A stretch of 64,000 nucleotides of DNA from a virus, in IMG/VR virus record IMGVR_UViG_3300008113_011148, positions 3,755 to 67,754 of that record; one strand, 5' to 3'. Of this stretch, positions 9,832 through 43,772 are shown one piece after another (within the stretch, counting starts at the first letter, position 1; each line of letters begins with the position of its first letter). The notes beneath the pieces were generated by a model. It ran no database searches and was not told the origin of the DNA. It was given only the letters and a program-made list of their open reading frames with translations. The position numbers and the translations under genes are program-made.

Positions 9832-10086
9832 ATGAGACGAATCAAACTATTTGAAGATTTCAAGCAAAATAATGAAGAAGGAACTCTTATCACAATCGAT
9901 GATATAATCAAATGTATTAAGAAAAGAGGAGTTATTTATTCTACAATTGTTAAAGAGTATCCAGATAATGATCCGAAAGATCCAATCACTCCAGTTGATA
10001 TAGATGAAGATGGTTTAATCACAGTTGATATAGACGGTAGAGAATACTATGTTGATTTAGATGATGTTGAGAAAATCGAATACTAA
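9832..10086 (+). CDS. Small tagged hypothetical protein
   Basis: MRRIKLFEDF N-terminus. Confidence 0.6.
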   Translation: MRRIKLFEDFKQNNEEGTLITIDDIIKCIKKRGVIYSTIVKEYPDNDPKDPITPVDIDEDGLITVDIDGREYYVDLDDVEKIEY

Positions 10087-10580
10087 TCTAAAAGTTTTTT
10101 TAATTTCAAATCTCGAAGAATAGATTTTGTTTTTTCATTTATAATTAATGGTATGTCATTTTCACTTCTGTAATTCATCCCAGTGAGGTCATAAACTAAG
10201 TTGTTGTAATTATCGATAATATTTCGCATTATCGATATATGTGGCTCATTATTTCTCCAAAGATTTTTTTTTGGAAATGGTATCCACATATCTATGTTTT
10301 TATTATTACAATATTCAATCAAATCTGTTATTTTGTGTGTGTCTTGCATATACACATCAGTGTGAAAAAGTATTAAATTTTTTCCATCTAATTTGTCAAA
10401 TATTATTTTATCTGGATGATTGCATCCGAACTTAGTCCATAAATATGTTTCTGCCAATTTATGTCGATATAATATCATACATTTTGGTAAATTATAAAAA
10501 ATATGGAATGTAGCTCTCGCTGCTACATTCCATGCAAGTTTATAATCAATACTCATATCAAATTCTAGTACATAAATCAT
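10083..10580 (-). CDS. Hypothetical protein with C-terminal RxxKLxxLL tag
   Basis: Ends LRDLKLKKLLD. Start moved downstream of the terminator hairpin at 10589-10610. Confidence 0.55.
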   Translation of the reverse strand: MIYVLEFDMSIDYKLAWNVAARATFHIFYNLPKCMILYRHKLAETYLWTKFGCNHPDKIIFDKLDGKNLILFHTDVYMQDTHKITDLIEYCNNKNIDMWIPFPKKNLWRNNEPHISIMRNIIDNYNNLVYDLTGMNYRSENDIPLIINEKTKSILRDLKLKKLLD

Positions 10581-10588
10581 AATCAAAA

Positions 10589-10610
10589 AAGTCAACTTTG
10601 AAGTTGACTT
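10589..10610 (-). terminator. Intrinsic terminator
   Basis: AAGTCAACTT-TG-AAGTTGACTT hairpin followed by a U tract on the minus strand. Confidence 0.7.
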
Positions 10611-10614
10611 ATTT

Positions 10615-12078
10615 TTATTTGTCGGTATTTTCTACCATAATTTGTTTTACTTTGTTGTTAGTTCTAGATATTGGAACTTTAACACCAATTGAAATCATTA
10701 ATACTCTACCTCTAATTTTAGAAAGATCTAAGGAGTCACAATAACCATCTGTCAAAACTACGGTGTTATATTCATTAAACTTCTCAGAAACTAAATCAAT
10801 AGCAGGTTGAAGAATGGTACCACCAAGACCTTTGATAACAAGTGTTTCAAGTTTTTTCTTAGATTTAATGTTCTGAATCCATTTCACTTCTGTGTCAGCC
10901 TCAATAAGATTTACTTCAATATCATTTCTGTAGATGTAGGAAAGCACTCTCTCAAAAGTTCCACCCATTGAACCAGATGTATCTAATATACAATTGATTT
11001 TTGTTTTGACTTTTCGACTACCTTTTAGTCCAGAAATTTGTTTTCTGTTTGGTTTTACTATTGTTTTTTCCTTCACCGTTCCAAAAATCATATTAGATAC
11101 CGCTCTTTTGATTTCACGTAAATAATCTTTGCGTTTCTTACGTAGTTTGTTAAGAGTTTGTTCGACATTACCGGCTGATAATCCACGAGCGGCTAATCTT
11201 TCCATTACGTCTTTTACCATGCCTTCTCTCATTTCTTCAGGAACATCATCGTTGATGTGCTTATCAAGATACTCACCATTTCCATTTTCCATGTCTTGAA
11301 AAATTTGTTCTTTAGACCAAGTATCAAGTGACTCACCATCTTTAGATGGATTTTTACCATAAGGACCATAAGATGGTTTACCACTAGAGTCTTTACCACC
11401 CTCATTACCCGTTCCTTGGCAATCTGAACAAGACTCTCCTTCACCAGGATTTTGGCTCTGATCTTGTCCTGGTTGTTGACCTTCACCTTTATCATCTTGT
11501 TTCTCACCTTTACCGTCACCTGGTTGTTGACCATCTTGTTTTTTACCAGAACCACCACAAGATTGACATTGAGAGTTTTGTTTTTGCTCTTTTTGCCATT
11601 TATCTTTTTCTTCTTTTAACCACTCATATAGTTCTTCGAAAATAAGTTTTCCGGTGTATTCTTTTGGAACAAAGAGTGCCATATTTTTACCATCTGGTGA
11701 TTTTGGAATTTCAACAAAAGCGTGTGGAATATCCTCCCAGATAACGTGATTAATGATCATGTCTTGAGCAATGTTAGACAATTTATGATCATATTGACCT
11801 GTAATTGTTCTACGTGGATGGTTAAAAAGAAGGTGAAAGTCCTCGTGAAGAGTAATAAAATTTACTTCTTTCTGAGACATATTTTCTAAAAACTTTGGTG
11901 AATAGTAGAAGTTCATTCCTTTAGATGTAACATTAACCGCACAAGTTCCTATAGAATCTTGTTCGTGAAAATTAACGTGTAGGTTGAACTCACCATAGTA
12001 AGGTAAATTAACTTTAGTATCAATTAACATGGTTTGAATACCATTAAGTAATTTTTCGTGTATGTTCTTAATTATCAT
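10615..12078 (-). CDS. Metallopeptidase-like plus vWA domain protein (DUF2201-like)
   Basis: LHEDFHLL (HExxH), NIAQDMIIN, Q/G-rich linker with CxxCxGxG pairs, DTSGSM MIDAS, GGGT-like GLGGT and LTDGY. Confidence 0.8.
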   Translation of the reverse strand: MIIKNIHEKLLNGIQTMLIDTKVNLPYYGEFNLHVNFHEQDSIGTCAVNVTSKGMNFYYSPKFLENMSQKEVNFITLHEDFHLLFNHPRRTITGQYDHKLSNIAQDMIINHVIWEDIPHAFVEIPKSPDGKNMALFVPKEYTGKLIFEELYEWLKEEKDKWQKEQKQNSQCQSCGGSGKKQDGQQPGDGKGEKQDDKGEGQQPGQDQSQNPGEGESCSDCQGTGNEGGKDSSGKPSYGPYGKNPSKDGESLDTWSKEQIFQDMENGNGEYLDKHINDDVPEEMREGMVKDVMERLAARGLSAGNVEQTLNKLRKKRKDYLREIKRAVSNMIFGTVKEKTIVKPNRKQISGLKGSRKVKTKINCILDTSGSMGGTFERVLSYIYRNDIEVNLIEADTEVKWIQNIKSKKKLETLVIKGLGGTILQPAIDLVSEKFNEYNTVVLTDGYCDSLDLSKIRGRVLMISIGVKVPISRTNNKVKQIMVENTDK

Positions 12079-12095
12079 ATTTTTTAATATTTATA

Positions 12096-12103
12096 CAAAT
12101 ATA
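12096..12103 (-). promoter_or_regulatory. Bacteroidota housekeeping -7 promoter element TAnnTTTG
   Basis: TATATTTG on minus strand upstream of the vWA gene. Same element at 14318, 15670, 20934, 23916, 26743, 40907 (minus) and 34215, 59256 (plus). Confidence 0.65.
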
Positions 12104-12127
12104 ATATTTATAAATCAATAAACCTAA

Positions 12128-12595
12128 TTATTTTTTTGATTTAGGTTTAATATCAAAGTTTTTAATTTTTTCTAATGTGCTGTCTAACGAGTGATTTATT
12201 TTAGAAAGAACTTCTTTCTTAAATGCATTTCTTCTAATTGACATTTCACGAATAAATTTATCAAGTAAATAACTTTCTAAGTCAGCTCTAATATGAACAT
12301 CGTATCCGAATACCGAATTAATTACTTTAACATTCAATGACTCAAGAAAAACAAAAAGTGTTCTATCCCCAGAGCTTATGTAACATTCTTGAGTTTGTAT
12401 ATCGTAATATAGTTTACTATCCTTATTGTGTAAGATAGTAAGAAATATTTCACAAACCGTATCTTCAGCCTCAGTCAGTCTTTTTGGCTTTGTTAGTTTT
12501 TTTTCTTTACCTAAAGTTTTGAATAATCTTAGGTAATAAACCTTAATCAATCTTCTGAACCTTGTCAACTTTTTATTAAATTCTTCTTTTGTCAT
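12128..12595 (-). CDS. Hypothetical protein
   Basis: 155 aa ORF in a co-oriented block. Confidence 0.6.
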   Translation of the reverse strand: MTKEEFNKKLTRFRRLIKVYYLRLFKTLGKEKKLTKPKRLTEAEDTVCEIFLTILHNKDSKLYYDIQTQECYISSGDRTLFVFLESLNVKVINSVFGYDVHIRADLESYLLDKFIREMSIRRNAFKKEVLSKINHSLDSTLEKIKNFDIKPKSKK

Positions 12596-12602
12596 ATTAT
12601 AT

Positions 12603-12989
12603 TTATTTTAAAATTTTATTAAGTTTATTTTCTCTTAGAATAGATTTGACTTGTTTTATTATATTTTCATCATCAGATGGATCACAATCTTGATTTATTT
12701 TTATATTATCACTAAAAATTAATTTAGCGGTATAAAGACACGCACAAACAACATCATCATAAATTTTTAATTGTGTTTTACAAAAGTTAAGACCATTTTT
12801 ATTTAAAGAAAAGTTAAATGTTTCATGACCATCTTCATCAACACCATTAAATCTAACCTGTGTCTCATTCACGGTCACATCTTCTAAAGAAATTTTCATA
12901 CTATCTATAAGAGTCTGGCAGATAGAAGAGAAGTCTTTAAACTTATCACTATCTAATGATTCAAATTCCCAATATCTTGTAAAACCCAT
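12603..12989 (-). CDS. Hypothetical phage protein with C-terminal tag
   Basis: MGFTRYW...FNG....HETF...FCKT..K.YD; ends LRENKLNKILK. Confidence 0.65.
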   Translation of the reverse strand: MGFTRYWEFESLDSDKFKDFSSICQTLIDSMKISLEDVTVNETQVRFNGVDEDGHETFNFSLNKNGLNFCKTQLKIYDDVVCACLYTAKLIFSDNIKINQDCDPSDDENIIKQVKSILRENKLNKILK

Positions 12990-12993
12990 TTAC

Positions 12994-14304: not shown

Positions 14305-14331
14305 AATTATTTTTTTACAAATTTAGGAAAA

Positions 14332-14730
14332 TTATATTAAATTATTATCATTAATAATATTAATTTTTGCATCTCTTACTTCTTCTTTAGTCAAAGGGTC
14401 AGGTAGTTTTTTACCATAAACATCAACTATATTATCAGTTTCAATGTATTTATCACCAGATTCTTCAATCAGTATCTGAAGAATTGGATTTAGAGTTTCT
14501 TTATCATCTTGAATTTCAAATATCTCCATTACTTCTTCTCTGAAAGGTTGAAAGTTATAAACAACTGTTGGTTGTTCATCATCATGCTTATCTAAACAGA
14601 CAGTTAATAATAGATATAACTCTTTCTTAGAAAGTAATTTCATATCTTCAACTACATTAACGACATTGAAATTTTTAAAAATATCAACAAACTCCTTAGA
14701 TACTTTTAGTTGTTTTGTTTCTTCGCTCAT
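14332..14730 (-). CDS. Hypothetical protein with C-terminal tag
   Basis: Ends VRDAKINIINDNNLI. Confidence 0.6.
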   Translation of the reverse strand: MSEETKQLKVSKEFVDIFKNFNVVNVVEDMKLLSKKELYLLLTVCLDKHDDEQPTVVYNFQPFREEVMEIFEIQDDKETLNPILQILIEESGDKYIETDNIVDVYGKKLPDPLTKEEVRDAKINIINDNNLI

Positions 14731-14732
14731 AT

Positions 14733-15026
14733 TTATTTTAGTATTTCGTTTATTTTACCTTCTCTTAATTTATCAATGTTCATTTCAAAGATAGCGTTCA
14801 TGTGTGCTTTTGAAATTTCTTCTTTTTCACCTTTTTCATTTATGACCCAGTATCTACGCCAACCACCATTTAATTTATAAAGTTGATCAGACCAAGTCTC
14901 ATATTCACCATCATACCACTTTCCCTCAATAAATCTATCCTCCCATTGAATATTAGACAAAGATAATCCTTTAGGTGAGCTTTGGTGACTACTTCTCTTA
15001 CAAAGAAATTTAGTTTTAACTATCAT
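14733..15026 (-). CDS. Hypothetical protein with C-terminal tag
   Basis: Ends LREGKINEILK. Confidence 0.6.
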   Translation of the reverse strand: MIVKTKFLCKRSSHQSSPKGLSLSNIQWEDRFIEGKWYDGEYETWSDQLYKLNGGWRRYWVINEKGEKEEISKAHMNAIFEMNIDKLREGKINEILK

Positions 15027-15538
15027 TAGATTCCTAATTTTTCTAATTTATACTCACGGTATTCCAATTTAGAAACAGACCCCAATTCATAAGCTCTATG
15101 AAAGAAAACCTCAAAGATTTCTTCATAACCCATTTCTTTAGCGCTCATAGCTCGATTTATTGCCTTCCATTCATCGGTGATTCGATTTGCTTGTGTTTTT
15201 GCGAGTATTATTGCTTTATCTACATCACCGCCAGATTTAGTCCAAATATCACTAACTCTAACTTTATTCTTTTCAAACTCAGCTTTGGTTTGACCGTTGT
15301 ATTTTCCTTCTTTTAGACCTCTCATATAATTTTCTGTTAATTTATGAAGACAATTATAAAATCCATATTTTAATCTTTGACCATTCCACTCAAAGGTTGC
15401 TGTAAGATTTTGCTCGTAGATTTCTCCAGTATCTCTATTCTTTTTTCTTGTAATTTTTCCTTTATACCAGAACCAATAACAATTCGTTCTTTCTACTTCG
15501 AGATAATCTCGAAATTGTAAATTAGTCCATTTATCCAT
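15026..15538 (-). CDS. Hypothetical protein with C-terminal tag
   Basis: Likely ATG start at 15538 (MDKW); ends YREYKLEKLGI. Confidence 0.6.
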   Translation of the reverse strand: MDKWTNLQFRDYLEVERTNCYWFWYKGKITRKKNRDTGEIYEQNLTATFEWNGQRLKYGFYNCLHKLTENYMRGLKEGKYNGQTKAEFEKNKVRVSDIWTKSGGDVDKAIILAKTQANRITDEWKAINRAMSAKEMGYEEIFEVFFHRAYELGSVSKLEYREYKLEKLGI

Positions 15539-15539
15539 A

Positions 15540-15665
15540 TTAAATTGTACAAAGTAAAGCAAAAACTAACCAACCCCAACCATTAACTCCTGCGAAAGCA
15601 AGAATAGTAATACCAGCAATTAAACCTAATTGTAATAATGTTTTATTTGTTATCTTTTCATTCAT
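15540..15665 (-). CDS. Small membrane peptide (41 aa), not in ORF track
   Basis: MNEKITNKTLLQLGLIAGITILAFAGVNGWGWLVFALLCTI. Fills the gap exactly, directly after TATATTTG at 15670-15677. Confidence 0.6.
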   Translation of the reverse strand: MNEKITNKTLLQLGLIAGITILAFAGVNGWGWLVFALLCTI

Positions 15666-15703: not shown

Positions 15704-16459
15704 TTAATTCAAAATATCATCAATGCGATTATTGCGAGACCATGTTATATCAGATTCTCTTACAATTTCTGACTGACTATATTGTATTATTTGACCTTTA
15801 GTGATCATCTTACAAATCTCATAATTCAGTGAAAAGTCTTTTCCATTTTTTTGAGGAATAAAATCCAAAATAAGATAATCCTCTGATTGATCACCAACTT
15901 TTGTAACAATATCACCAATTGAGAATCTAGTTAAAGTGTGTTCACCTCCATCTTCATCATATCCCCAGATTTTAGAAAATATTTCAATTGTATCTTCCAA
16001 AAACATAACATAAGCCATTATTGATGATAAGTGACCTTCAAATTCATAAGTTAATTTAGTGTACTCTTTTTCTTTTACTTTGTGGTCAATTTGTTTCTTT
16101 GATTTAATAATAGAGTCTGATACTTCAATATCACCTATTTTCTCTCGATTACTATTATCAACAAAAAGTGTTTTTGTCTCTATTTTATTTGTGAACCATT
16201 TATTAAAAATATGAAAGAAATTATCTACTCTATTTTTAGCAACCGAAAAAGAAAATTGAAATTTCATATGTGGATCCAATGTCACTACCTCTGATTCTGG
16301 ATCAGAACCAAAAGAGCCAAGTCCATATTTAAGCCTTTGCTTAAAAACAATAGCAGGAAAGGAATTATGTGTGCTATATTTTGGAAAAACATGATAAGGT
16401 GTATTTTCCAGTCTATCATTCCAATTTAAAATTTCACTATCTGATAAGTATTTTTTCAT
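15704..16459 (-). CDS. Hypothetical protein with C-terminal tag
   Basis: Ends SRNNRIDDILN. Confidence 0.6.
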   Translation of the reverse strand: MKKYLSDSEILNWNDRLENTPYHVFPKYSTHNSFPAIVFKQRLKYGLGSFGSDPESEVVTLDPHMKFQFSFSVAKNRVDNFFHIFNKWFTNKIETKTLFVDNSNREKIGDIEVSDSIIKSKKQIDHKVKEKEYTKLTYEFEGHLSSIMAYVMFLEDTIEIFSKIWGYDEDGGEHTLTRFSIGDIVTKVGDQSEDYLILDFIPQKNGKDFSLNYEICKMITKGQIIQYSQSEIVRESDITWSRNNRIDDILN

Positions 16460-16463: not shown

Positions 16464-16955
16464 TTATTTTTTTATCCAAATTACCGCAATGTACTTTGTA
16501 CCAAACTCAACTGGTAAACCAGCGTGTATACTATCTTTATTTACTTTACCATCACTATCTAAATTTTCCCAAATGATAAGTTTGCCAGTTTCTGGTTTTA
16601 TTTTATTATTAACCTTCGGAAAAAAAGTTTCACCACCTACAAAACTATTATTTAAGTATATCAGTGCGGTCTTTGATCTTGAAGCCCCATCATGATGTTC
16701 TTTGTACTCACCATTTGGCTCATATTTAACAAAATGAAAATCTTCTTGATTTTTTTGAGGTAGATTTGCAAGTTCTGATACTTCTAATTTTATCCTATCT
16801 ACAAGTGGGTGGTCATTGAACCACCTAACTTTAGCCTTTCTATAACCAAGTCGATTTCCTGTGGTAGTGCCGGCTCTGAGTTGACCAGATTCACCTAAAC
16901 TTATTAGTGTTTCGCACTCTTGTTGTGTAAGAAAATTTTTATATTCAGTTATCAT
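16464..16955 (-). CDS. 2OG-Fe(II) oxygenase (prolyl 4-hydroxylase-like)
   Basis: YKEHHD (HxD), TALIYLN, GGETFF, IHAGLPV..GTKY. Confidence 0.85.
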   Translation of the reverse strand: MITEYKNFLTQQECETLISLGESGQLRAGTTTGNRLGYRKAKVRWFNDHPLVDRIKLEVSELANLPQKNQEDFHFVKYEPNGEYKEHHDGASRSKTALIYLNNSFVGGETFFPKVNNKIKPETGKLIIWENLDSDGKVNKDSIHAGLPVEFGTKYIAVIWIKK

Positions 16956-17187
16956 CTAATATCTCGTTAATTTTTGAATTTCTCATTTCATCGATGGTTG
17001 TAAAATATTTATCAAAAATATTCATAGTTAAAGGTATTTTTTCACCACTTTCAGATTGTGACCATAATATAAGGCCGCTTTTATACTCAAACTCAGATGG
17101 AGGTGTCGTCTGGTATATTTTTCCTTTAGCACATATAACCCTTTTTTCATCTGGATCGAACATCGTTCTTTTGCAGTAAATGAACAC
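16945..17187 (-). CDS. Small hypothetical protein with C-terminal tag
   Basis: Ends MRNSKINEILDDN. Confidence 0.6.
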   Translation of the reverse strand: MFIYCKRTMFDPDEKRVICAKGKIYQTTPPSEFEYKSGLILWSQSESGEKIPLTMNIFDKYFTTIDEMRNSKINEILDDN

Positions 17188-17192: not shown

Positions 17193-17519
17193 TTATTTAG
17201 TTTTTGTATCAAAATCAACATTAACATTTGTGATTTGATTAAGTTTTATTTCTCTCATTAATTGAATAAAATATCTTTCTAAATCCGCCACAGAATTAAA
17301 TTCAACGCCTATATAACTACTCTTACTATCAAAACACAAAAAGTTGCCAGAAGAATAGATATGTTGATATTGGGTTACTCCTGGGATGATAATAATACTA
17401 TCTATATCATTACCATTGTAACCGGGATCAACCTCATCTTTAGTATACCATTTGATACTAACAACTTTTGGTGTTTCTTTAGTTATTCTCAACATAATCT
17501 TTAATTCTTTTGTTAGCAA
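17193..17519 (-). CDS. Hypothetical protein with near-C-terminal tag
   Basis: Contains MREIKLNQITN. True start probably MLRITKE. Confidence 0.55.
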   Translation of the reverse strand: MLTKELKIMLRITKETPKVVSIKWYTKDEVDPGYNGNDIDSIIIIPGVTQYQHIYSSGNFLCFDSKSSYIGVEFNSVADLERYFIQLMREIKLNQITNVNVDFDTKTK

Positions 17520-18300: not shown

Positions 18301-18876
18301 TTACATTTCTTTACTTTTCTTATCAAGAAATTCTTTTTCTTCTATAGTCAAAGAATTCATTCCATTGTTAGCTATTTTGTCAAGTATATCATCAATATCA
18401 AGAGATACATTGTAATCACTTTTGACTAAGTCTTTAATCATTTCGAAAGAAACTACTGATTTATCAACATCTGGAATAGAATTTTTCACACTTTGATTAT
18501 TATGGTACTCAAATTCAACAAGCATTTTGACTTTTGTGATTTCACTTACAATATCTTTGATAATTTGAGGCAAAAAATCTTTAATTCTATTAGATAGTAC
18601 AAATTGTCCTACTTTAAGAGTTAATTCGACTCTTACTTTCGACAATTCAAATTCGACTCTTTGATTGTATTCCATTTTAGAACACTTTTCAAATAATTCT
18701 GTATAGTATTTTTCTTTATCTTCTACTTTCGGATGAAAAAACCCATAAGAGTATAAAAATTCAACTTTATCAACATTTATATCCTTACCCGTTAGTTTCT
18801 CAGCTATTTCTATCCATTCTGTAACTTGTGGATAATCGTGAAAAACTTCTTCTTTTGTAGCTAAAATTGTAAACAT
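18301..18876 (-). CDS. Hypothetical protein with C-terminal DUF6576-like helical hairpin
   Basis: Ends IDDILDKIANNGMNSLTIEEKEFLD. Confidence 0.6.
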   Translation of the reverse strand: MFTILATKEEVFHDYPQVTEWIEIAEKLTGKDINVDKVEFLYSYGFFHPKVEDKEKYYTELFEKCSKMEYNQRVEFELSKVRVELTLKVGQFVLSNRIKDFLPQIIKDIVSEITKVKMLVEFEYHNNQSVKNSIPDVDKSVVSFEMIKDLVKSDYNVSLDIDDILDKIANNGMNSLTIEEKEFLDKKSKEM

Positions 18877-18922: not shown

Positions 18923-19357
18923 TTATTTGTCTCCCAATAGGTTAGACAATCTACCAGATCGAAACTCAGATAGACTTATTCCCTTAGCTATTTCTAAAAG
19001 TGTATCTTCTACATCTGAAATCGACGGTGACATATCTTTACAGAAGTTTGTTAAGATTGAATTTCTTAACTTTAGTGTCTCACCATCACTTCTGAATGAA
19101 CTGACTAACATCATGGTATCTGGTAGCTTATTGTTTCTAATCCAAAGAGAAGCTTCATCGTCAATTACCCAGTTATCATTTTTGAGAAGATATTTAATCT
19201 CTATCTCATACTTAGTCCCATCTTCACCTTCTGAGAACATCTTTCTTTTGAATGATCTGTTTGGGTGATTCGGATCTTCTTCCTTCCAAATCATTATATT
19301 TTTATCGGTATATAAAGTAAGACTTTTAACTATTTCTATTATTCTATCTTTCAACAT
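18923..19357 (-). CDS. Hypothetical protein with C-terminal tag
   Basis: Ends FRSGRLSNLLGDK. Confidence 0.6.
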   Translation of the reverse strand: MLKDRIIEIVKSLTLYTDKNIMIWKEEDPNHPNRSFKRKMFSEGEDGTKYEIEIKYLLKNDNWVIDDEASLWIRNNKLPDTMMLVSSFRSDGETLKLRNSILTNFCKDMSPSISDVEDTLLEIAKGISLSEFRSGRLSNLLGDK

Positions 19358-20069: not shown

Positions 20070-20441
20070 TTATATTCCTAATACTTTGAGTTTATCCTCT
20101 CTTAATGAGATTTTATTTGGTTTAAAAGTTGTCTTGATATAATCAAACCACTCAGACCAATTATCAAATACTGGTTCTGAATACCATCTATCTAAATCTT
20201 TAGATGAAACAGCATCTTCTTGTAGAGAATAAAGTGACATAATTTTTTCTCTATCTGACTCTTTGAGATTGTTCCACCAATACTTATCAATTTTTGTAAT
20301 CAAAAACTTTTGATAAAATAAAGTTAATCGTTGTTGTTTTTCTCTACGAATCTGTCTTTCTGACCTCTGTGACCAAAATCCGACTTCACCGTCTCTTTGT
20401 TTTTCTTGGTATTTTGCAAATCTTTTATCTTGATATTTCAT
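20070..20441 (-). CDS. Hypothetical protein with C-terminal tag
   Basis: Ends LREDKLKVLGI. Confidence 0.6.
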   Translation of the reverse strand: MKYQDKRFAKYQEKQRDGEVGFWSQRSERQIRREKQQRLTLFYQKFLITKIDKYWWNNLKESDREKIMSLYSLQEDAVSSKDLDRWYSEPVFDNWSEWFDYIKTTFKPNKISLREDKLKVLGI

Positions 20442-20929
20442 ACTATTATATTATCAATTTTCATATTTCTTAAAACAACTTTGATGTTGTTTTTATTTCC
20501 ATCTAAGATTTCATCAACAAATTTATTTGTTCTATGGTGTAATCCCGGTTTATCTGGATCATCTGATATCATGCTCATTGAACCAATGTATTCCTCAAAC
20601 TTCTCAGACATTAATACTATACTCAAATTTTGAGTTGAGTAAAGATACATCAAAATATTTTTTAATTTAAGATTTATATCTTTTGTGTTTGGTCCATTAT
20701 TGTACTTTCTCCACATTTTCCAATATTTATTGAAAAAGTCGGTCATATCATCTGGTGTGTATAACTTACTTTCAACCGTTGGTTCAAATCCAATCCAGTG
20801 ATTATATTTCTCAAGAATATAGTCTGGACTTTGTTTTAAAAGGTCACAACTATCCACATACTTACTGAAATTAACATTGAATTTAGTAAGATTAACAATT
20901 TTATTATATTCTTTATCTAAAGATATCAT
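20438..20929 (-). CDS. Hypothetical protein with C-terminal tag
   Basis: Ends LRNMKIDNIIV; TATATTTG lies 4 nt upstream of the ATG. Confidence 0.6.
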   Translation of the reverse strand: MISLDKEYNKIVNLTKFNVNFSKYVDSCDLLKQSPDYILEKYNHWIGFEPTVESKLYTPDDMTDFFNKYWKMWRKYNNGPNTKDINLKLKNILMYLYSTQNLSIVLMSEKFEEYIGSMSMISDDPDKPGLHHRTNKFVDEILDGNKNNIKVVLRNMKIDNIIV

Positions 20930-24522: not shown

Positions 24523-24682
24523 CTTTGTCACGATTATCCATTACTATTCTTTTACAACCAAGACATACAATGACAGGACCATTTTGTGTCATAATAATTC
24601 TTCTCTCACACTTCATTTGACAATCTTTTTCACCAACTGGTGCAAAATCATCCTCTATTTTGCGAAGCTTTTTATTTTTCAT
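24509..24682 (-). CDS. Small Cys-rich (zinc-ribbon-like) protein, not in ORF track
   Basis: 57 aa MKNKKLRK...CQMKC...CLGC..., filling the gap between neighbours. Confidence 0.55.
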   Translation of the reverse strand: MKNKKLRKIEDDFAPVGEKDCQMKCERRIIMTQNGPVIVCLGCKRIVMDNRDKDELC

Positions 24683-25008
24683 ATAATACCTTTTATAATA
24701 AGTTCTCTTCTTAATGATTTCAATAAACTCAATTCATCTTCAAATTGATTAAAATCATTTGTTAATTTTTTTATTTGTTCATTCAATAGTGACAAAGATA
24801 AGGATTTTTTATTATATTTTATCCAATCCTCTTTGATATAAATAGGCATTTGAGATATATCGAATATTTTTTGTTCCTCTTCTACCAAAAAAGAATATTC
24901 ACCATCTTTTTCTATCAAAATGGTCAAATAATTATCTAAACTGTAATAATTGATTTTAGATGTGGTAGTGATGTGATTCCACGGACTTACATTAATTTCT
25001 CTTTTCAT
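24679..25008 (-). CDS. Hypothetical protein with degenerate C-terminal tag
   Basis: Ends LRRELIIKGII. Confidence 0.55.
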   Translation of the reverse strand: MKREINVSPWNHITTTSKINYYSLDNYLTILIEKDGEYSFLVEEEQKIFDISQMPIYIKEDWIKYNKKSLSLSLLNEQIKKLTNDFNQFEDELSLLKSLRRELIIKGII

Positions 25009-25618
25009 TTGAGTAATTATCTAAAAATAATCTTTCTTCAATAGTTAAAGAAGATATTCCGTATTCGGAAATTTTATCTAAGATTTCATCAATATCAAAT
25101 CTAACAGAATTTTCCGAAACAATATTATCAATTTCTGATAAGTTTAAGTTTTCTTTGACCCTTTGTAAATCATCGTATTTCATGTTGAAATTCTTTTCAA
25201 ATTCTGATTTTGACAATACTAAACCTAGTACATTTACAACATCATTTATTTCTTTGATGAAAGCAGATTCAATAAATTCTGAAATTTTGAATAAAGTTTC
25301 TTTTTCAACTAACTCAGATGTGTGTATACATACACCATTCTGAAATATCGCAACTTCTTTTTTATCTAAAAAATAAGCCACCTCTACAATACCTTTATCA
25401 TCGATTTCAGATAAAAGATGGCAGATTTGATTCACTCTACTTTTGAACTTAACTTTACCATTCAGAAAAGAATTTAATAGTTTTTTATAAACATTATTAA
25501 TATCATTAAGGACTTTTTCCTGAGCTGACTTTTGACTTTTCTCAAACAAGAAATTTGAAACCTTCAAACCAATATAAAGACCAAGTATAAAAAAAAATGA
25601 GGATGCTAGTATTATCAT
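24992..25618 (-). CDS. Membrane-anchored protein with C-terminal DUF6576-like hairpin
   Basis: N-terminal TM helix; ends IDEILDKISEYGISSLTIEERLFLD. Confidence 0.6.
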   Translation of the reverse strand: MIILASSFFFILGLYIGLKVSNFLFEKSQKSAQEKVLNDINNVYKKLLNSFLNGKVKFKSRVNQICHLLSEIDDKGIVEVAYFLDKKEVAIFQNGVCIHTSELVEKETLFKISEFIESAFIKEINDVVNVLGLVLSKSEFEKNFNMKYDDLQRVKENLNLSEIDNIVSENSVRFDIDEILDKISEYGISSLTIEERLFLDNYSNEKRN

Positions 25619-33927: not shown

Positions 33928-34210
33928 AAATTACAATAAAAAAAATCGGTTTAGAATCAAAAGACCAACTTATTCGTTTCGACAAATCTTTTGAAATTAT
34001 AGACGATTTAAATCACCGATACGATTGGAGTTTTGAAGATGGAACTTGCTTATTGTATAAAGCACCAAAGAACTTATTGACAATAAATACTTGGGTCGAG
34101 AATACTGGGCTAAGTTTATAAGTAGGTCAAGAATAGATGGTGGTCCAATTTTCATTATAGATACTTTACAAGTAGAAAGAGATGAGAAGATTTCGGAAAT
34201 TCTAAAATAA
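33924..34210 (+). pseudogene. Frameshifted small gene with C-terminal tag
   Basis: MKITIKK...CLLY continues in the -1 frame as STKELIDNKYLG...VERDEKISEILK. One missing A at TATAAAGC (34056-34063) would restore it. Confidence 0.5.
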
Positions 34211-34227: not shown

Positions 34228-34554
34228 ATGAGAGGTCGTGCCTGGCGGAGACATATCGAGGAAAAAGTAATTGTAAGTCGTCTAAAAAGACATACACAAG
34301 GTTATAGATATTGGTATTCAGAGGATGCTAACAAGAATTATTTTAAAAAAGTTATTATAGTTGATTTTTTAGAAAAGAAGGATTACTTTGATTCTAAGAC
34401 AATTACTACACCTATGTGGGATTCAAAAAATAAAGTAAAGTATTCACCAAATAGAAATAAACCTTACTATAGGGATGGTAAAAAAAGATTTGATACAAGA
34501 GAATATAATAAGACTTTTTTTCACAAAATATTAAAAGAAAATGGACTTAAATAA
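34228..34554 (+). CDS. Basic hypothetical protein
   Basis: 108 aa; TATATTTG 5 nt upstream. Confidence 0.6.
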   Translation: MRGRAWRRHIEEKVIVSRLKRHTQGYRYWYSEDANKNYFKKVIIVDFLEKKDYFDSKTITTPMWDSKNKVKYSPNRNKPYYRDGKKRFDTREYNKTFFHKILKENGLK

Positions 34555-35062
34555 GATAATGCCTAATGGTGATAGTTGGTCTTTTTCGAAAGGTATCATC
34601 TATTTTAAAAAAATACAAAAAATTCCAATTTGTATTTTAATAGATGACGTTCCACATATTATTTTAGAGAATAAAATTCCCAAAAGAGTATTAGAATTAA
34701 CTAAAAACTTTATGAAAAGTGGCCAGGAGTTTTACTTTACTACGCCACTTGCGACTAATCCCTCTGGAGTGATTGATTTTAAAAATGAAGTAATAAGAAG
34801 TTATTTATACTCTTATGCTAATACTAAATTTTTTGTTGGTTTCAAAAAAATTAACTTTGACCTAATAAAGAATCTAATAGATTGGTCTGAAAAAAATGAT
34901 GCTTGGTATCTTGTGAAATCGAAATATGATGAGATAAATAAAAAAATACAGAAATCTTACTACGATTATTATCAACAAAAGGATCTTTATGATTATGATT
35001 ATGAAATCAGAGAAGAATTCAGAACTCTTTGGAGAGAAATTCAAATAAATAAAATTATATAA
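34541..35062 (+). CDS. Hypothetical protein with C-terminal tag
   Basis: Ends WREIQINKII. Confidence 0.6.
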   Translation: MDLNKIMPNGDSWSFSKGIIYFKKIQKIPICILIDDVPHIILENKIPKRVLELTKNFMKSGQEFYFTTPLATNPSGVIDFKNEVIRSYLYSYANTKFFVGFKKINFDLIKNLIDWSEKNDAWYLVKSKYDEINKKIQKSYYDYYQQKDLYDYDYEIREEFRTLWREIQINKII

Positions 35063-35085: not shown

Positions 35086-35454
35086 ATGCTTATGGCTAAA
35101 AAACAAACATCATTAAATATCCCTTCTGGGGTATTAGGAATTACTGGATCATCGTCAAATACATCGGCCACAATTTCTGGAACAAGTTTAGTTTATAATG
35201 GATCATCATTTACAATAGGAGTTTCAAAAACGACTTATTATATTTTAGGAGAAGATGTTGAAATTTCAAATAGTGGTCCTTATAGAGATTCGAATTTAAT
35301 AACTAATATTGCTATACTAAATGTTTTAGGAAAACCTTTTCTGGATGAATTACATAAAAATAATACCTTCTTTCCATCTGAAATTGAAGATTATTTAGAA
35401 AAGAAATTTAAGTGGTTAGAAAGAGATAAGAAAATAGATGACATCATAAACTAA
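35086..35454 (+). CDS. Hypothetical protein with C-terminal tag
   Basis: Ends ERDKKIDDIIN. Confidence 0.6.
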   Translation: MLMAKKQTSLNIPSGVLGITGSSSNTSATISGTSLVYNGSSFTIGVSKTTYYILGEDVEISNSGPYRDSNLITNIAILNVLGKPFLDELHKNNTFFPSEIEDYLEKKFKWLERDKKIDDIIN

Positions 35455-37441: not shown

Positions 37442-37996
37442 ATGAAAAAGTATAATATTACTCTTTCCGGTTACGGAGCTGAAGTCACAATTGGTAGATT
37501 AAATGAAGAACAATGTGAAATTCTTAAAAAAGCAAAATCAGAAGAAAAATCATTCAACGAAGTGGTTTGGGATGAAGAGCTTGGTTCGTCTTGGTATGAG
37601 TTAGATGATTTTTATCATAATTATAATGTAGGTGATACTTTCACTATTACTATAGAAGATGAAGAAGGTAATGAGTTACATTCTTTTACAGAAGATATAC
37701 TTTATTCAGATGTTGATTTTTTAGACTATCAAGATAAATTTACAGATACTGATGAGTCACTTATAATGTGTGTTAGTGGTGAGAAAGGTGTATTCTTTGA
37801 AGCAACATTAGAATTAGAAGAAGAATTCGATCTTTCAAAGTTTAAGATAATGGTCGATGAAGAAGTTGGAATTCCAGGTACTTACTTTGGTGATATGTTA
37901 TCTAAAGTTTATTATGATGGTGAAGAACTTGATAATTGGGGAGGTTCAACCGATGGTAAATATTTTGATGTTTACACAAATCTTAAATTTGAGTAA
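37442..37996 (+). CDS. Acidic hypothetical phage protein
   Basis: GYGAE...EKG.FF...YDGEEL...GSTDGK. Confidence 0.6.
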   Translation: MKKYNITLSGYGAEVTIGRLNEEQCEILKKAKSEEKSFNEVVWDEELGSSWYELDDFYHNYNVGDTFTITIEDEEGNELHSFTEDILYSDVDFLDYQDKFTDTDESLIMCVSGEKGVFFEATLELEEEFDLSKFKIMVDEEVGIPGTYFGDMLSKVYYDGEELDNWGGSTDGKYFDVYTNLKFE

Positions 37997-38162
37997 TAAA
38001 AAATTGGTTGATAAATTACTACAAGCCTCTGCGTTGATAAATAATAAATCATCCAGAGGTTATGGTAATTACATAGTAGTAAACTCAACTATAGCATCAG
38101 TGTTATCTAAATTAAGACCAAAATCAATAAAAGACAAAATCAAAAGGTTATTCAATGAATAG
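37989..38162 (+). CDS. Mini-protein resembling a segment of T4-like major capsid protein, with C-terminal tag
   Basis: TTG start; LVDKLLQASALINNKSSRGYGNYIVVNSTIASVL then IKDKIKRLFNE. Confidence 0.45.
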   Translation: MSNKKLVDKLLQASALINNKSSRGYGNYIVVNSTIASVLSKLRPKSIKDKIKRLFNE

Positions 38163-38775: not shown

Positions 38776-38778
38776 GTT

Positions 38779-39486: not shown

Positions 39487-39489
39487 TAC

Positions 39490-39951: not shown

Positions 39952-39970
39952 TTAACTAACTCTCTTTTTT
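39937..39970. terminator. Bidirectional terminator (34 bp perfect palindrome)
   Basis: AAAAAAGAGAGTTAGTT-AACTAACTCTCTTTTTT between convergent genes. Confidence 0.8.
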
Positions 39971-40901
39971 ATTTAAGTAGTTGTTTTAACTTAAATTGTG
40001 ATCTATATCTTAATAGAGCCAAGTCCTTCATTTTACATTCCAATTCCGTATCAAAGTCGAGACCGAATGTTTTAATTTCTTCATAAATATAATCCGCATG
40101 TGCTGTTTGTCTACCAGTAAAATCCTCAATAGTTTTTGGAGAACTCATATGTGTAAGTGGTCTTATATCACCCCAAGTCGAGCAAGCTAATCTAAGAGCT
40201 TCCTCCATAGTTTGGTCTTGAGGACCATAGTTGAAGTGGTGTTGGTCAAAAACAATTGGAATTCCGATTTCTTTATGAATCCAATCATACAACATCTTTA
40301 CTGAAAACTGATTTGGTGAATCATCATTTTCAATTGTAAGTCTTTTTTTACAGGAATCTGATAGCAATTGAAAACTTTCACAGAATTTCTTAGCTGCATC
40401 AAAAGTTGTAGGCTTTGTAGTTCCAACGTGAATATTTATTGGATAATAGTTAGACTGGTCCAAACCCATCAAATCCATAAGATAAGCATGTTGGTCTAAT
40501 TCAGAAATTGCTTTATAAATAACATCCTGTCTTTCGGATGCTAAAATATTGAATGGACCGGGGTGATACGAAAGTCTCATACCATTTTCTTTTGCTTTAT
40601 CACCTATTCTTTTCAGTAAGTTTTTGATTGTATGGAAATCAGGCAAGTCGTCAAAGATGTATTCTGACATCCAGGGAAAAGAGTCACTAGACATACGATA
40701 TACATAAATATCGTTTTCTAAGTTCCAATCTAAGACTTTAATAGTATCAATTAAATTAAGTATGATTAGTTCAGAGACATATGAAAGACCTTTTGCATCA
40801 AAGGTTTTTCTGACCATACTTCTATTGACTAAGATTTGTTCTTTCTTTTTTTTACCTTCGTTGCATCCGAGTGAAATGCAGCAGTATCCTAAATTTTTCA
40901 T
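39969..40901 (-). CDS. uvsE: UV damage endonuclease
   Basis: LGYCC, YRMSS, HPGPF, INIHVG, LTIENDD, VFDQHH, HADY, ECKMKD. Confidence 0.88.
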   Translation of the reverse strand: MKNLGYCCISLGCNEGKKKKEQILVNRSMVRKTFDAKGLSYVSELIILNLIDTIKVLDWNLENDIYVYRMSSDSFPWMSEYIFDDLPDFHTIKNLLKRIGDKAKENGMRLSYHPGPFNILASERQDVIYKAISELDQHAYLMDLMGLDQSNYYPINIHVGTTKPTTFDAAKKFCESFQLLSDSCKKRLTIENDDSPNQFSVKMLYDWIHKEIGIPIVFDQHHFNYGPQDQTMEEALRLACSTWGDIRPLTHMSSPKTIEDFTGRQTAHADYIYEEIKTFGLDFDTELECKMKDLALLRYRSQFKLKQLLK

Positions 40902-40921
40902 ATTTACAAATATATGAAAAA

Positions 40922-42418
40922 TTATTCTAAGGAAGAAATAACTGTCAATTTTTCTTGACCTCTTTGAACCATTTTAACGGGAAATCCCCAAAGATATTTA
41001 ATATGTGGAAGAACTTTATCAACCTCATTTATATCTAATTCTCGTCCGTTTAATGGTGTGTATTCTAAAGTAAGACTACGGTTACCATAAACATCAACAT
41101 TATAAACTTGTATATCTGGAATATATCTACTTCTGTTATAAAATTCAGAAAGTGATTGTCTCACCTTTTTATAACCTTTTTCATTATGAATTGAACTAAC
41201 TTTATAAAAATTAGAATCTTGTTCATCAGAAATCTCAAATAATCTCATATCACGCATCACTTTTGGTGAAAGATATTGAAGAACAAATGTCTCATCTTTA
41301 AAATTTTCAACAATCCATCTAAAGTTTTCAGCCCAATTTCCTTTACCAGCAATTTCTGGAAACCATTGTAAATCCTCTGGTGTTGGATCCAATGACATTC
41401 TTTTTAAGTCAGAAAATATATTAAATCCTAAAGTATATGGATTAAGACCTGAATAAAACTTAGAATCGAATCCTGGTTGAAATATAACATTTGAGTGATG
41501 ATGCATAAATTCTAACATAAAACCATCATCTAGATATCCTTCTTCAAACATCTTATTTACAATCTCGTAGTGACAAAATGTGGCACAGCCTTCATTGATG
41601 ACCTTAGTTTGTCCTTGTGGATAAAAATATTGAGATATTTTTCTAACAATTCTAACAATTTCTCTTTGCCATCCTTTTAACTTTGGTGAATTCTTTTCAA
41701 TAAAGTAAAGAATATTTTCTTCTGGTTGAGCCGGGAATCTTTCTTTCCTTTTTCTTTTTTGTTCTTCTTTTGGAAGAGTTCTCCAAATATCATCTAATAA
41801 GATTCTATCGTCTTCTATTTTCTTTATCAATCTTTCGTGTTCTTCTTTTGGTGTCAATTTAGCTGGTTTTTTATACTTATCAACTCCATAGTTCATTAGG
41901 GCATGACAAGAATCTAAAACCATCTCTACTTCTTCATATCCATACTTCTCTTCACATTTAGCAATAAAGTTTTTAGCAAATAACATATAATCAATAATTG
42001 AATCTGCTTGTGTCCACTGCTTGAAAAGATAGTTGTTTTTAAAGAAGTGGTTATGGCCCTGAACATGCGCATAAACTAATAACATAAGACAAGTGTCATT
42101 GTCCTCTAAGTTATAAGAGATACACGGATTTGAGTTAATTACCATTTCGTAAGATAACCCCATTCTTCCTTTTTTATAATTATTTGAATTTACCACATAA
42201 TCTTTTCCGAATTTCCAATGGTTATAGGAAAGAGGAAGACCTATAAGTGAATAAGCATCTAAAAGTTGTTCGGAAGACACAATCTCAAATTGGTTTGGAT
42301 AAACATCAAGTCCAAGTAAGTCTATAGACATTTTATCAATTATTTCAGAAAAAACTTGAATAGTTTCTTCATTCCAATCTGATTTTGAGAATAAGTTTTT
42401 AATATCTTTTTTCTTCAT
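40922..42418 (-). CDS. spoVR: SpoVR family protein (YcgB)
   Basis: HWKFGK, YEMVINSNPCISY, AHVQGHNHFFKNN, TKVINEG.A, NPY.LG. Confidence 0.9.
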   Translation of the reverse strand: MKKKDIKNLFSKSDWNEETIQVFSEIIDKMSIDLLGLDVYPNQFEIVSSEQLLDAYSLIGLPLSYNHWKFGKDYVVNSNNYKKGRMGLSYEMVINSNPCISYNLEDNDTCLMLLVYAHVQGHNHFFKNNYLFKQWTQADSIIDYMLFAKNFIAKCEEKYGYEEVEMVLDSCHALMNYGVDKYKKPAKLTPKEEHERLIKKIEDDRILLDDIWRTLPKEEQKRKRKERFPAQPEENILYFIEKNSPKLKGWQREIVRIVRKISQYFYPQGQTKVINEGCATFCHYEIVNKMFEEGYLDDGFMLEFMHHHSNVIFQPGFDSKFYSGLNPYTLGFNIFSDLKRMSLDPTPEDLQWFPEIAGKGNWAENFRWIVENFKDETFVLQYLSPKVMRDMRLFEISDEQDSNFYKVSSIHNEKGYKKVRQSLSEFYNRSRYIPDIQVYNVDVYGNRSLTLEYTPLNGRELDINEVDKVLPHIKYLWGFPVKMVQRGQEKLTVISSLE

Positions 42419-43684
42419 TTAGGCCGTTTTCTTTTTAAAGAAGTCTTGAAATACTGTCCATATTTCTGAAACTTCGTGAATTTTTCCAATCTCAAAATTC
42501 TTTCTTTTTTCAGAAAGTAATTTATAGTTACTCCAAAGATCACCATCATTTTCTCTACAAACTTCAATATAAATCATGTATTGAATTTTATTAAGTATAT
42601 CAGAATCTAATATTTTATAGCAGTCATCAGCATCTGAACGGTTCCAAACATCACCATCTGAGGCTTGAGCGGCATAAATATTCCAATTTTGAGAATATCT
42701 CTCTTTGATAATCTTATTCATCAATTCAAGTGCTGGAGTTACAACAGTGCCACCCGTTTCTCTCGAATTAAAGAATTCTTCTTCAGTAACTTCTTTTGCT
42801 TCTGTGTGGTGTCTAATAAAAACAATTTCAATTTTTTCATATTGTTTTGTTAAAAACATATAAAGTAACATAAAGAATCTTTTAGAAATATCTTTTTCTT
42901 TTTCACCCATTGAACCAGAAATATCCATAATACAGAACATCACAGCACAAGTTGTAGGAACAGCAACCTTTTCAAAATTATTATATTGAAGGTCTACTTC
43001 TTCCATAAAAGAAACAGACAATTTCATTTTTTTAAGTTTGTCTAGTTCTAGCTCGAGTTCTAATCTCTTTTCATCAGTTAAATTAGAGTCTTTTAATAAC
43101 TCTTCAACATCTTTGATTTTCTTATCAAAGAAGAAACCTAAAGCCATTCTACGAGCCATTGAGTTCTTAAATGATTTAACAACATTTAATCTACTTGGAT
43201 TTCCATAATTTGAAAAACCAGCACGTTTTTGTTTCCAGTCAACTATTGTATTAAGATGTTTTTTAACCATATCTGGAAGTTCTAAATCAGCAAAAAAGTA
43301 ATCTAAAAATTCATCTCTACTAATTGTAACTGAAAATTCATCTTCTCCTGTTTCTGGACTATTCGAACCTTGTCTTCCGTTTCCTTTACCAGATCCACCT
43401 TGTGGTTTTTTTATTTTATCACCAGGCACATATTCTTTATTTCCTGGATGAACATATTTTTTATCACCAGAATCTTTATCATACGTAAATTGTGGCTCAG
43501 ATATTCCTTTTACCGGAACTTTTACTTTATCTTTTGAACTAGTGATATCTTTGATACCGGTTCCTTTAACAATGTCTGGTAAGGCCTTTTTTATTTGACC
43601 TTCAATCCTTTTGAGAAACCTCTGACGATTTTCAGAGGATTTCCCTTTTGGATTTTTTCTTCTATCTACGATGTTTATTGACAT
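42419..43684 (-). CDS. yeaH: YeaH/YhbH family (DUF444) vWA-like protein
   Basis: IVDRRKN..GKS..NRQRF, MDISGSM, FIRHHT.A, ETGGT, ASDGD. Confidence 0.9.
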   Translation of the reverse strand: MSINIVDRRKNPKGKSSENRQRFLKRIEGQIKKALPDIVKGTGIKDITSSKDKVKVPVKGISEPQFTYDKDSGDKKYVHPGNKEYVPGDKIKKPQGGSGKGNGRQGSNSPETGEDEFSVTISRDEFLDYFFADLELPDMVKKHLNTIVDWKQKRAGFSNYGNPSRLNVVKSFKNSMARRMALGFFFDKKIKDVEELLKDSNLTDEKRLELELELDKLKKMKLSVSFMEEVDLQYNNFEKVAVPTTCAVMFCIMDISGSMGEKEKDISKRFFMLLYMFLTKQYEKIEIVFIRHHTEAKEVTEEEFFNSRETGGTVVTPALELMNKIIKERYSQNWNIYAAQASDGDVWNRSDADDCYKILDSDILNKIQYMIYIEVCRENDGDLWSNYKLLSEKRKNFEIGKIHEVSEIWTVFQDFFKKKTA

Positions 43685-43772
43685 TGAATATTCTTTCTAT
43701 TTTAAGCTTTCGCATAACTATCTTTTTAATACGATAGTATTCTTTTGTAAATAAGTCCTTTACGGGTCTCAT
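43662..43772 (-). CDS. 36 aa micro-ORF consisting largely of the C-terminal tag
   Basis: MRPVKDLFTKEYYRIKKIVMRKLKIERIFNVNKHRR. ATG abuts the prkA stop and the ORF overlaps the yeaH start. Confidence 0.5.
   Translation of the reverse strand: MRPVKDLFTKEYYRIKKIVMRKLKIERIFNVNKHRR

Follow-up and report, generated by a model that had tools for sequence, protein, structure and literature searches.

Why should many small and otherwise unrelated proteins of one virus end in the same short peptide? The question is raised by a 64,000-nucleotide stretch of viral DNA (hereafter the window), for which a first-pass annotation had listed 17 small proteins ending in a common R-x-x-K-[IL]-x-x-[IL]-[IL] helix. 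The window belongs to a 67,754-bp virus record of ~30% GC, and in the phage collection it is closest to two uncultured megaphages, LR745206 (634,780 bp) and LR756502 (642,428 bp). Genes throughout are greedy open reading frames (ORFs), not curated calls, and number 94 ORF-genes with 21,705 amino acids (aa) in the window's genome. We confirmed that the shared C-terminal motif, here called the tail, is real, and that it is commoner than first reported.

Each of the 17 listed peptides was found where it had been placed, the coordinate given for it being the end of a gene. Searching all six-frame ORFs of at least 30 aa in the window with the pattern R..[KR][IL]..[IL][ILG] returned 15 matches, 11 of which stop 1-3 residues before the stop of listed genes. 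Among the 94 ORF-genes, this pattern lies no more than 6 residues from the C-terminus in 10 (plus the 39-aa ORF 34091-34210) and is internal in 1, as compared with 0.02 expected from 200 shuffles of the whole proteins (maximum 1) and 0.07 from 2000 shuffles of the last 20 residues (maximum 2), i.e., there is an enrichment at C-termini over composition. Its own regular expression gave 6 C-terminal and 1 internal matches against ~0.04 expected. Since the pattern came from the same window sequences, we also applied to the window C-termini an out-of-sample position matrix built solely from the 98 tails of LR745206. The 99.9th percentile of shuffled C-termini was 8.5 bits and the best internal control 1.8 bits, and 13 window tails scored 8.9-27.7 bits, above every control. 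The claim that all 17 share one motif thus has to be trimmed: one (43662) is borderline, two (24679 and 34541) are weak, and one (38162) is not a member. The variants at 14332, 17193, 34541 and 43662 are kept in orthologues.

Most carriers lie on the minus strand. The tail closes the products of 10083-10595 (170 aa; KSILRDLKLKKLLD-stop at 10083..10130, 25.9 bits), 12603-12989 (128 aa; KSILRENKLNKILK-stop at 12603..12650, 27.7 bits), 14733-15026 (97 aa; KLREGKINEILK-stop at 14733..14780, 18.1 bits), 15026-15538 (170 aa, with the ORF extending to 15562; EYREYKLEKLGI-stop at 15026..15073, 22.8 bits), 15704-16459 (251 aa; WSRNNRIDDILN-stop at 15704..15751, 16.9 bits, and the same in LR745206 and in loci L002 and L003), 16945-17187 (80 aa; EMRNSKINEILDDN-stop at 16945..16992, 23.6 bits), 18923-19357 (144 aa; EFRSGRLSNLLGDK-stop at 18923..18970, 8.9 bits, with FR[DE]G[KR][IL]NKILN in its orthologues), 20070-20441 (123 aa; SLREDKLKVLGI-stop at 20070..20117, 18.0 bits) and 20438-20929 (163 aa; VLRNMKIDNIIV-stop at 20438..20485, 16.2 bits). 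Variant tails on this strand end 14332-14730 (132 aa; VRDAKINIIN plus 5 residues at 14332..14379, 11.2 bits), where three orthologues keep RDAKI[DN]IIN, and 17193-17519 (108 aa; LMREIKLNQIT plus an 11-residue extension at 17193..17267, 19.5 bits), where three orthologues also keep the variant. On the plus strand, the tail is found on the 39-aa ORF 34091-34210, whose status as a gene is uncertain (VERDEKISEILK-stop at 34163..34210, 24.3 bits), and on 35086-35454 (122 aa; LERDKKIDDIIN-stop at 35407..35454, 13.9 bits), with a weak variant carrying Q for K on 34541-35062 (173 aa; WREIQINKII-stop at 35015..35062, 4.2 bits; YRDIQINMIL in an orthologue). The borderline case is the 36-aa minus-strand ORF 43662-43772 (MRKLKIERIF plus 7 residues at 43662..43724, 8.1 bits), which represents a sub-flavour, R-K-x-K-I-x-R-I-F plus an extension, that is conserved in LR745206, where R-K-x-K-I-x-[KR]-I-F is common to four tiny proteins. 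Doubtful is 24679-25008 (109 aa, minus strand; LRRELIIKGII-stop at 24679..24726, without the K, 4.3 bits). We rejected 38162 as a tail carrier: this plus-strand mini-protein of ~57 aa, with a probable TTG start near 37989 (37989..38162), has a different ending (KIKRLFNE), scores -4.0 bits and is a copy of a capsid segment.

Inspection of the DNA demonstrated that what is shared is protein. In the window, the DNA 3′ of the tails differs from gene to gene, and Arg, Lys, Leu and Ile are specified by varied codons; across the 98 tails of LR745206, R0, K3, position 4 and the Gly/Leu options use codons as the genome does (p 0.98 for R), with mild skews confined to Ile +7 and Leu +8. As the codons at motif positions follow genome usage, selection is on the protein, and the motif is a protein-level feature and not a DNA signal.

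Our survey of other genomes showed both how common the tail is and where it stops. In LR745206, 98 of 1004 ORF-genes carry it, as against 21 internal matches in 199,791 aa, and the tagged proteins have a median length of 105 aa (range 41-731 aa) compared with 140 aa for all genes. Segments resembling transmembrane (TM) helices are present in 7.1% of them versus 12.7%, and neither composition, charge nor TM content sets the tagged proteins apart. ORF-level counts in sampled 50-kb stretches gave 21 of 114 genes in the first 50 kb of LR756502, 0 of 57 in LR756501 and 1 of 75 in LR756504, and none of 94 in the sample of Cellulophaga phage phi38:1. Whole records were searched with a degenerate DNA pattern, namely the motif followed by one codon and a stop, and with its reverse as the control; there were 42 matches against 3 in LR745206 (635 kb), 55 against 2 in LR756502 (642 kb), 5 against 4 in LR756501 (735 kb), 12 against 8 in LR756504 (636 kb) and 0 against 0 in phi38:1 (73 kb). 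The IMG/VR records G003 (476 kb), G004 (172 kb), G005 (85 kb), G006 (77 kb) and G007 (483 kb) gave 33, 39, 23, 21 and 18 matches against 2, 2, 0, 0 and 1, respectively. Across the whole of IMG/VR, a stricter pattern for tails ending in L-G-I (the LGI flavour) occurs in 82 stretches, often with several on one large contig, versus 3 for its reversed form, which is one N longer. In addition, 79 Bacteroidota-type cellular loci (1.29 Mb, 1606 ORF-genes) contained no C-terminal match and 8 internal ones. With tag-rich relatives on one side and near-empty other huge phages, phi38:1 and Bacteroidota loci on the other, these sequence counts indicate that the tail belongs to one megaphage lineage and is a general feature neither of AT-rich genomes nor of the host phylum. 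The scale of ~10% of the proteome and the limit to one clade were not in the first-pass annotation, nor were the tandem arrays, internal copies and capsid-derived bodies described below.

The tail has a defined shape. Its consensus is h-R-[DEN]-x-K-[IL]-x-x-[IL]-[LG]-x(0-3)-end or, over ~13 residues, [K/h]-[S/Q]-x-h-R-[D/E/N]-x-K-[I/L]-x-x-[I/L]-[L/G]-x. In the 98 LR745206 tails, the Arg is preceded by [K/I/L] at -4, [S/Q/E] at -3 and h at -1 (aliphatic or Tyr in 60 of 98), and followed by D47/E23/N18 at +1 (D, E or N in 88 of 98), K at +3, L/I at +4, N/K/D at +5, I/L at +7 and L62/G23/I13 at +8. Positions 0, +1, +3, +4, +7 and +8 are informative, -4, -3, -1 and +5 more weakly so, and +2, +6 and +9 vary; conservation ends at -5, with none further upstream. 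One residue follows +8 in 41 tails, two in 23, none in 9 and three to six in 25. On a helical wheel, the conserved residues would share one face, opposite +2, +6 and +9, and the L-G-I ending looks like a helix cap. AlphaFold2 (AF2) models predict a helical tail in two proteins: that of the 170-aa protein 15026-15538 (mean predicted local distance difference test score, pLDDT, 71.8) has a largely helical C-terminal half, with helix 157-168 at the tail, and the 128-aa protein is a compact alpha/beta domain (mean pLDDT 94.5; predicted template modelling score, pTM, 0.89) with helices at 104-120 and 124-127.

The proteins that bear the tail (the bodies) are, as had been claimed, unrelated. With the tails trimmed off, blastp found no pair in the window below E 0.18, and 97 of 98 LR745206 bodies are singletons at E<1e-3; hhalign of the profiles of two tagged families gave a probability of 0.75%, and the AF2 models of two tagged proteins differ, one being largely helical and the other alpha/beta. 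No Pfam family was found at E<=0.001 in 96 of the 98 LR745206 tagged proteins, whereas many untagged window proteins of at least 100 aa match one. Searches of the window candidates against Pfam and PHROGs gave nothing above the cut-off, Foldseek of both AF2 models against the PDB gave nothing at E<=0.001, and the ESM Atlas gave no usable match to the last 25 residues. For the 128-aa model, the best Z in a wide VIA-align search was 5.9, a generic alpha/beta match, and a BFVD search returned three viral relatives.

Within a family the tail is held fast, while across families it is portable. In the 170-aa family (15026), a relaxed expression fits 111 of 120 homologues listed, the other 9 having Q for K, and in the 128-aa family 77 of 82 homologues listed keep the tail by manual count, down to 47% identity, with the other 5 being fragments; it is thus retained across orthologues while its variable positions change. 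The 128-aa body itself belongs to a family of 3562 cluster representatives (E<=0.001), and among the best 149 of these the tail is present in only 8 (strict) to 12 (loose), with many untailed relatives sharing the preceding S-S-D-G stretch and then ending otherwise. The tail is therefore a portable add-on of a subfamily and not part of the domain. Tagged genes also tend to be neighbours, with 23 adjacent pairs where ~9.6 are expected, and in a 6-kb array on an IMG/VR contig, 11 strict tails and 1 variant occur among 17 minus-strand ORFs. These observations fit tandem duplication in which the bodies diverge fast while the tail stays constant.

Some small proteins of this lineage, tailed ones among them, appear to be pieces of the major capsid protein. 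The capsid protein lies outside the window, and comparisons use the LR745206 copy. A tagged 243-aa protein of LR745206 is paralogous to the gp23-like major capsid protein over residues 344-530 of the latter (E 6e-15); as this body carries the tail, the tail sits on bodies of independent origin. The 39-aa ORF 34091-34210 and a second tagged LR745206 protein share an S-R-I-D-G-x-P-I-F segment with the capsid protein, a weak likeness (E 0.005-0.09; by tblastn, the ORF matches the tagged LR745206 protein at E 0.005 and the capsid gene at E 0.086). The mini-protein 37989-38162 copies another capsid segment (Pfam Gp23 at E 6e-4, under the cut-off; by tblastn, E 9e-10 to a small ORF of a relative and E 0.003 to the LR745206 capsid gene). 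Such capsid pieces, some of them tailed, are encoded at 37989-38162 and 34091-34210 (both plus strand) in the window and at 207176-207907 and 598978-599391 in LR745206, and could act as decoys or assembly regulators.

The tail is separate from a second tag. This is M-K-[YH]-[IL]-K-x-[YF]-x-x-[FL]-(E/N), found by eye at the N-terminus of ~18 window proteins, and we take it to resemble the capsid targeting sequence (CTS) of phage T4. With the strict form MK[YH][IL][KR]x[YF]xx[FL], we counted 9 carriers among the 94 genes of the window's genome and 44 among the 1004 of LR745206; N-tagged genes begin at 3941-9363, 9398-10086, 30788, 45812, 48221, 49465 and 59507-62821; one carrier, 3941-5116, is an enzyme with a poly(A)-polymerase head of the CCA-adding type. 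As stated in the first-pass annotation, no tailed protein has the N-terminal tag (none of 10 in the window, and none of 98 in LR745206, where 4.3 are expected). Its further statement that tailed genes are mostly in blocks driven by host-type TAnnTTTG promoters holds in part, as a raw occurrence that carries no chance expectation, with boxes 12-25 nt upstream of the starts at 20929, 15665, 14304, 12078 and 34228. There is no TAnnTTTG box before the N-tag block 3941-9363, and by eye a AATATATA-like box stands just upstream of some N-tag genes. This agrees with C-tag and N-tag genes being two differently regulated sets, as far as upstream sequence can indicate. In a relative (locus L191, G004 117000-123000), an N-tagged (MKKLKTFEGF) leucine-rich-repeat protein (ORF 200-748, plus strand) adjoins a C-tagged mini-gene array.

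What, then, is the tail for? The first-pass annotation had proposed a second addressing system, and what stands of this is that the tail is an element of its own at the protein level, that it is portable between small proteins which otherwise have no kinship and nearly all lack an annotation, that it is distinct from the N-terminal tag and never occurs with it, and that it is found in blocks with host-type -7 boxes. Its carriers are small, soluble-looking, fast-evolving and unannotated, and make up about one-tenth of the proteins of the lineage. The reading that we favour, with about even confidence, is that the tail is a docking or address helix for one common putative partner. Under this proposal, the C-terminus would form an amphipathic helix of ~13 residues with the conserved R and K and three or four aliphatic residues on one face, and this face would dock into a groove with an acidic pocket on the partner. 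Each variable body would bind or do something different, and the constant tail would wire all bodies to the same machine or place, for which a phage or host protease or chaperone, a procapsid or scaffold, or another hub are candidates. New members might arise both by tandem duplication with rapid divergence of the body and by grafting of the tail onto pre-existing domains.

Several observations weigh against a docking helix. No partner was found, and the presence of four candidate readers of the tail, the DUF2201 peptidase/VWA protein, phage Hsp70, PrkA and DUF6576 proteins, does not tell tag-rich from tag-poor huge phages, as both kinds have them. The long helix 104-120 of the 128-aa protein, in its confident AF2 model, is closed by the first half of the motif, and so the tail may partly pack on its own body. 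In LR745206, the motif is internal in 21 of 119 occurrences (~1 in 6), often before a polar linker and a further domain, and some orthologues carry 4-13 residues beyond it; a free carboxyl end is therefore not required. The sequences of these internal and extended copies would fit a helix module and weaken the analogy with a reader of C-ends. Finally, the LGI flavour clusters along the genome (9 neighbour pairs versus 3.1 expected, P 0.0007), with the bodies of such neighbours being dissimilar, and one trio of true paralogues with 25-33% identity is present in the 6-kb array, the other bodies of which are not recognisably related. Clustering and trio together imply that some sharing of the tail is by descent.

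A bolder form of the docking reading is speculative. One lineage of phages of 0.5-0.64 Mb might use a two-label sorting code, with an N-tag (MKYLKxF) and a C-tag (R-D-x-K-I-x-x-I-L), the latter wiring ~100 hypervariable binders, capsid decoys included, to a single machine, e.g., a protease or chaperone, and thereby forming an adaptor-based system, encoded by the phage, that would neutralise or remove host factors. If this were true, separate tagged sets would together cover a large share of the proteome.

Three other explanations are in our view unlikely. The first supposes no common partner at all, with the tail as the last remnant of an ancient, hugely expanded multigene family and a generic stabilising C-terminal helix. 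The one-stranded tandem arrays, with their one paralogous trio, the excess of adjacent tagged pairs and the clustering of the LGI flavour speak in its favour. Set against these are protein lengths of 41-731 aa and predicted folds that differ, a 128-aa body family that is mostly without the tail, and a tagged body that is a capsid-protein paralogue; furthermore, a structural helix alone should need no invariant R and K on unrelated folds.

The second takes the tail for a degron or adaptor tail, read by an AAA+ protease or chaperone of host or phage, that would allow timed removal of the bodies or delivery of their targets. One terminal signal on many unrelated, short-lived effectors is the logic of protease tags as we know them, and the phage encodes PrkA, Hsp70, a subtilase, a rhomboid and the DUF2201 peptidase/VWA protein, the gene for the last lying inside a tagged block with 76-78% DNA identity to the megaphages; capsid-fragment bodies could serve as baits. 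The tail has no sequence likeness to ClpX or SspB signals as we know them, however, its internal and extended copies speak against a C-end being read, and all of the candidate machines are also found in tag-poor relatives. We hold the probability of a degron to be low.

The third would make the procapsid or scaffold the partner, with the tail as a cargo-loading helix by which small proteins would be packed into the head and then ejected, by analogy with phage P22. The window tail EYREYKLEKLGI shares with the P22 scaffolding protein (ETYRKLKAKLKGIR) the aromatic-R-x-x-K spacing and the G-I ending, and some tagged bodies are fragments of the capsid protein. In the accessible text of PMC9965877, P22 Y292, R293 and K296 bind acidic residues of the coat N-arm, and in that of PMC3012670 the internal proteins of T4 are diverse and joined by their targeting sequence alone. 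The hydrophobic phase is different, however, with positions 4 and 7 here and 2 and 6 in P22, and in place of the P22 helix-loop-helix AF2 predicts a single terminal helix in the 170-aa protein, if a long and a short one in the 128-aa protein. A T4-CTS-like N-terminal tag is already present in this phage and is never found together with the tail; tagged genes are interspersed with genes for DNA metabolism downstream of host-type -7 boxes; around the capsid gene, between 100 and 250 kb of LR745206, few genes are tagged (5 of 188); and ~100 species of cargo would be many. We therefore doubt that cargo loading explains the tail.

Self- or cross-association, in which tagged proteins oligomerise or co-assemble via their tails, seems to us quite improbable. 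Short terminal helices often drive oligomerisation, and the conserved Arg next to an acidic +1 could be self-complementary, but an interface common to ~100 proteins would cross-react indiscriminately, and a helix of 13 residues whose apolar face is interrupted halfway by an Arg should be ill suited to a coiled coil. A signal in the nucleic acid or for translation, placed at gene ends (promoter, terminator, coupling or arrest), could account for a motif near stop codons in tightly packed operons, but we rejected it as close to refuted, given the codon usage and differing downstream DNA reported above, a distance to the stop of 0-6 residues and 21 internal copies.

The genome around the tailed genes is that of a large phage. 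Pfam matches in the window include type II topoisomerase subunits, a 5′-3′ exonuclease, NusG, dCMP deaminase and UvdE, the PrkA/DUF444/SpoVR trio, phage Hsp70, a subtilase, a rhomboid and the DUF2201 peptidase/VWA protein, and proteins with type IX secretion (CHU_C) domains. In gene order, the window matches LR745206 around 470-515 kb, and the phage Hsp70 is 57-62% identical to the DnaK of Chitinophagales, Saprospiraceae, Cytophagales and Sphingobacteriaceae. From gene content, kinship with LR745206 and LR756502, and the likeness of Hsp70 to Bacteroidota DnaK, we infer that the window is a fragment of a megaphage that infects Bacteroidota, with the host the less direct part of this assignment. 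A 13-kb locus (L021; 25% GC) binned in a 'Candidatus Muiribacterium' metagenome-assembled genome encodes an Hsp70 78% identical to that of the phage, far closer than the cellular DnaKs found (57-62%), and is probably a mis-binned relative. LR745206 and LR756502 are placed, in the accessible part of their published account (PMC9723777), among phages >630 kb and are linked to a freshwater lake and a subsurface sample; that part does not mention the tail. Our search of the literature on huge and jumbo phages gave nothing relevant on such a motif.

The PrkA, DUF444 (YeaH-like) and SpoVR trio is complete, and together with the phage Hsp70 occupies 40922-45695 and 50207-52066 (both minus strand); PrkA has counterparts of 86% identity in LR745206 and LR756502 and none in LR756501. 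The DUF2201 metallopeptidase/VWA gene (10615-12078, minus strand), inside a tagged gene block, is the sole DNA-level match to the megaphages within 10-21 kb, and its protein is 83-86% identical; this similarity and its position inside the block mark it as unusually constrained. CHU_C domains occur with SprB, PKD, CUB and GEVED domains at 1641-3830 (minus strand) and 54144-59022 (plus strand), which suggests that these phage proteins are exported via the type IX secretion system of the host. Two pairs of neighbouring genes share other endings, N-x-L-Y-R-D-stop (5652-6929 and 6933-7793) and Q-I-L-I-Q-K-stop (62408-62821 and 62818-63999), and are probably local paralogues.

Two proteins with DUF6576 (PF20216) are encoded on the minus strand at 18301-18876 and 24992-25618 (E 5e-10 and 1e-8), with the domain at the protein end. 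Its first helix, D-I-D-D-I-L-D-K-I, recalls the I-D-D-I-L of many tails, but it is without the invariant R and K and runs on into G-x-x-S-L-T-x-x-E-K-x-F-L, and the DUF6576 profile matches none of the 16 window candidates and none of the 98 tagged proteins of LR745206. In Bacteroidota, DUF6576 is fused to rhomboid proteases; the phage rhomboid (23953-24531) is without it, and four huge phages carry 1-6 copies of the domain, some of them N-terminal.

Megaphage genomes are mostly dark matter, and the tail gives a handle on ~100 unannotated proteins at once. A single peptide could fish out their common partner, and the label could flag this class of protein in metagenomes. If the partner were a protease, chaperone or capsid, the tail would define a new phage sorting or adaptor system, and it could be a portable tool.

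Among known systems, the SspB XB tail for ClpX and the poxvirus ankyrin/PRANC proteins join a variable binding domain to a constant C-terminal docking element that serves one machine. Neither resembles the megaphage tail in sequence, judged against their consensus as we know it, and ClpX-type and SspB signals, again as we know them, need a free C-end. The megaphage tail tolerates 0-13 residues after it, and some of its copies are internal. By analogy, the closest precedent would be the T4 CTS in logic and the coat-binding C-terminus of the P22 scaffolding protein in sequence. As with the tail, a short terminal address peptide is the sole shared part of diverse, fast-evolving small phage proteins in T4, where, according to the accessible text of PMC3012670, these include diverse defence proteins with only the targeting sequence in common. 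The CTS sits at the N-terminus, sends its carriers to the scaffolding core and is cut off by the prohead protease, whereas the megaphage tail is C-terminal (98 versus 21 internal in LR745206) and mutually exclusive with the phage's own CTS-like tag. The P22 scaffolding protein (gp8) ends in ETYRKLKAKLKGIR (from NC_002371), a basic amphipathic helix at the very C-terminus that has aromatic-R-x-x-K and closes with G-I, as in EYREYKLEKLGI, and Y292, R293 and K296 anchor it to the acidic residues of the coat N-arm (PMC9965877, in its accessible part). In reading the R-x-x-K comparison, R0 and K3 are present in all 98 tails by the selection of the regular expression. The architecture in P22 is a helix-loop-helix with two helices; AF2 predicts the single helix 157-168 in the 170-aa protein and 104-120 plus a short 124-127 in the 128-aa protein. 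P22 further differs in using one protein and not ~100, in its other hydrophobic register and in having no acidic residue after the Arg.

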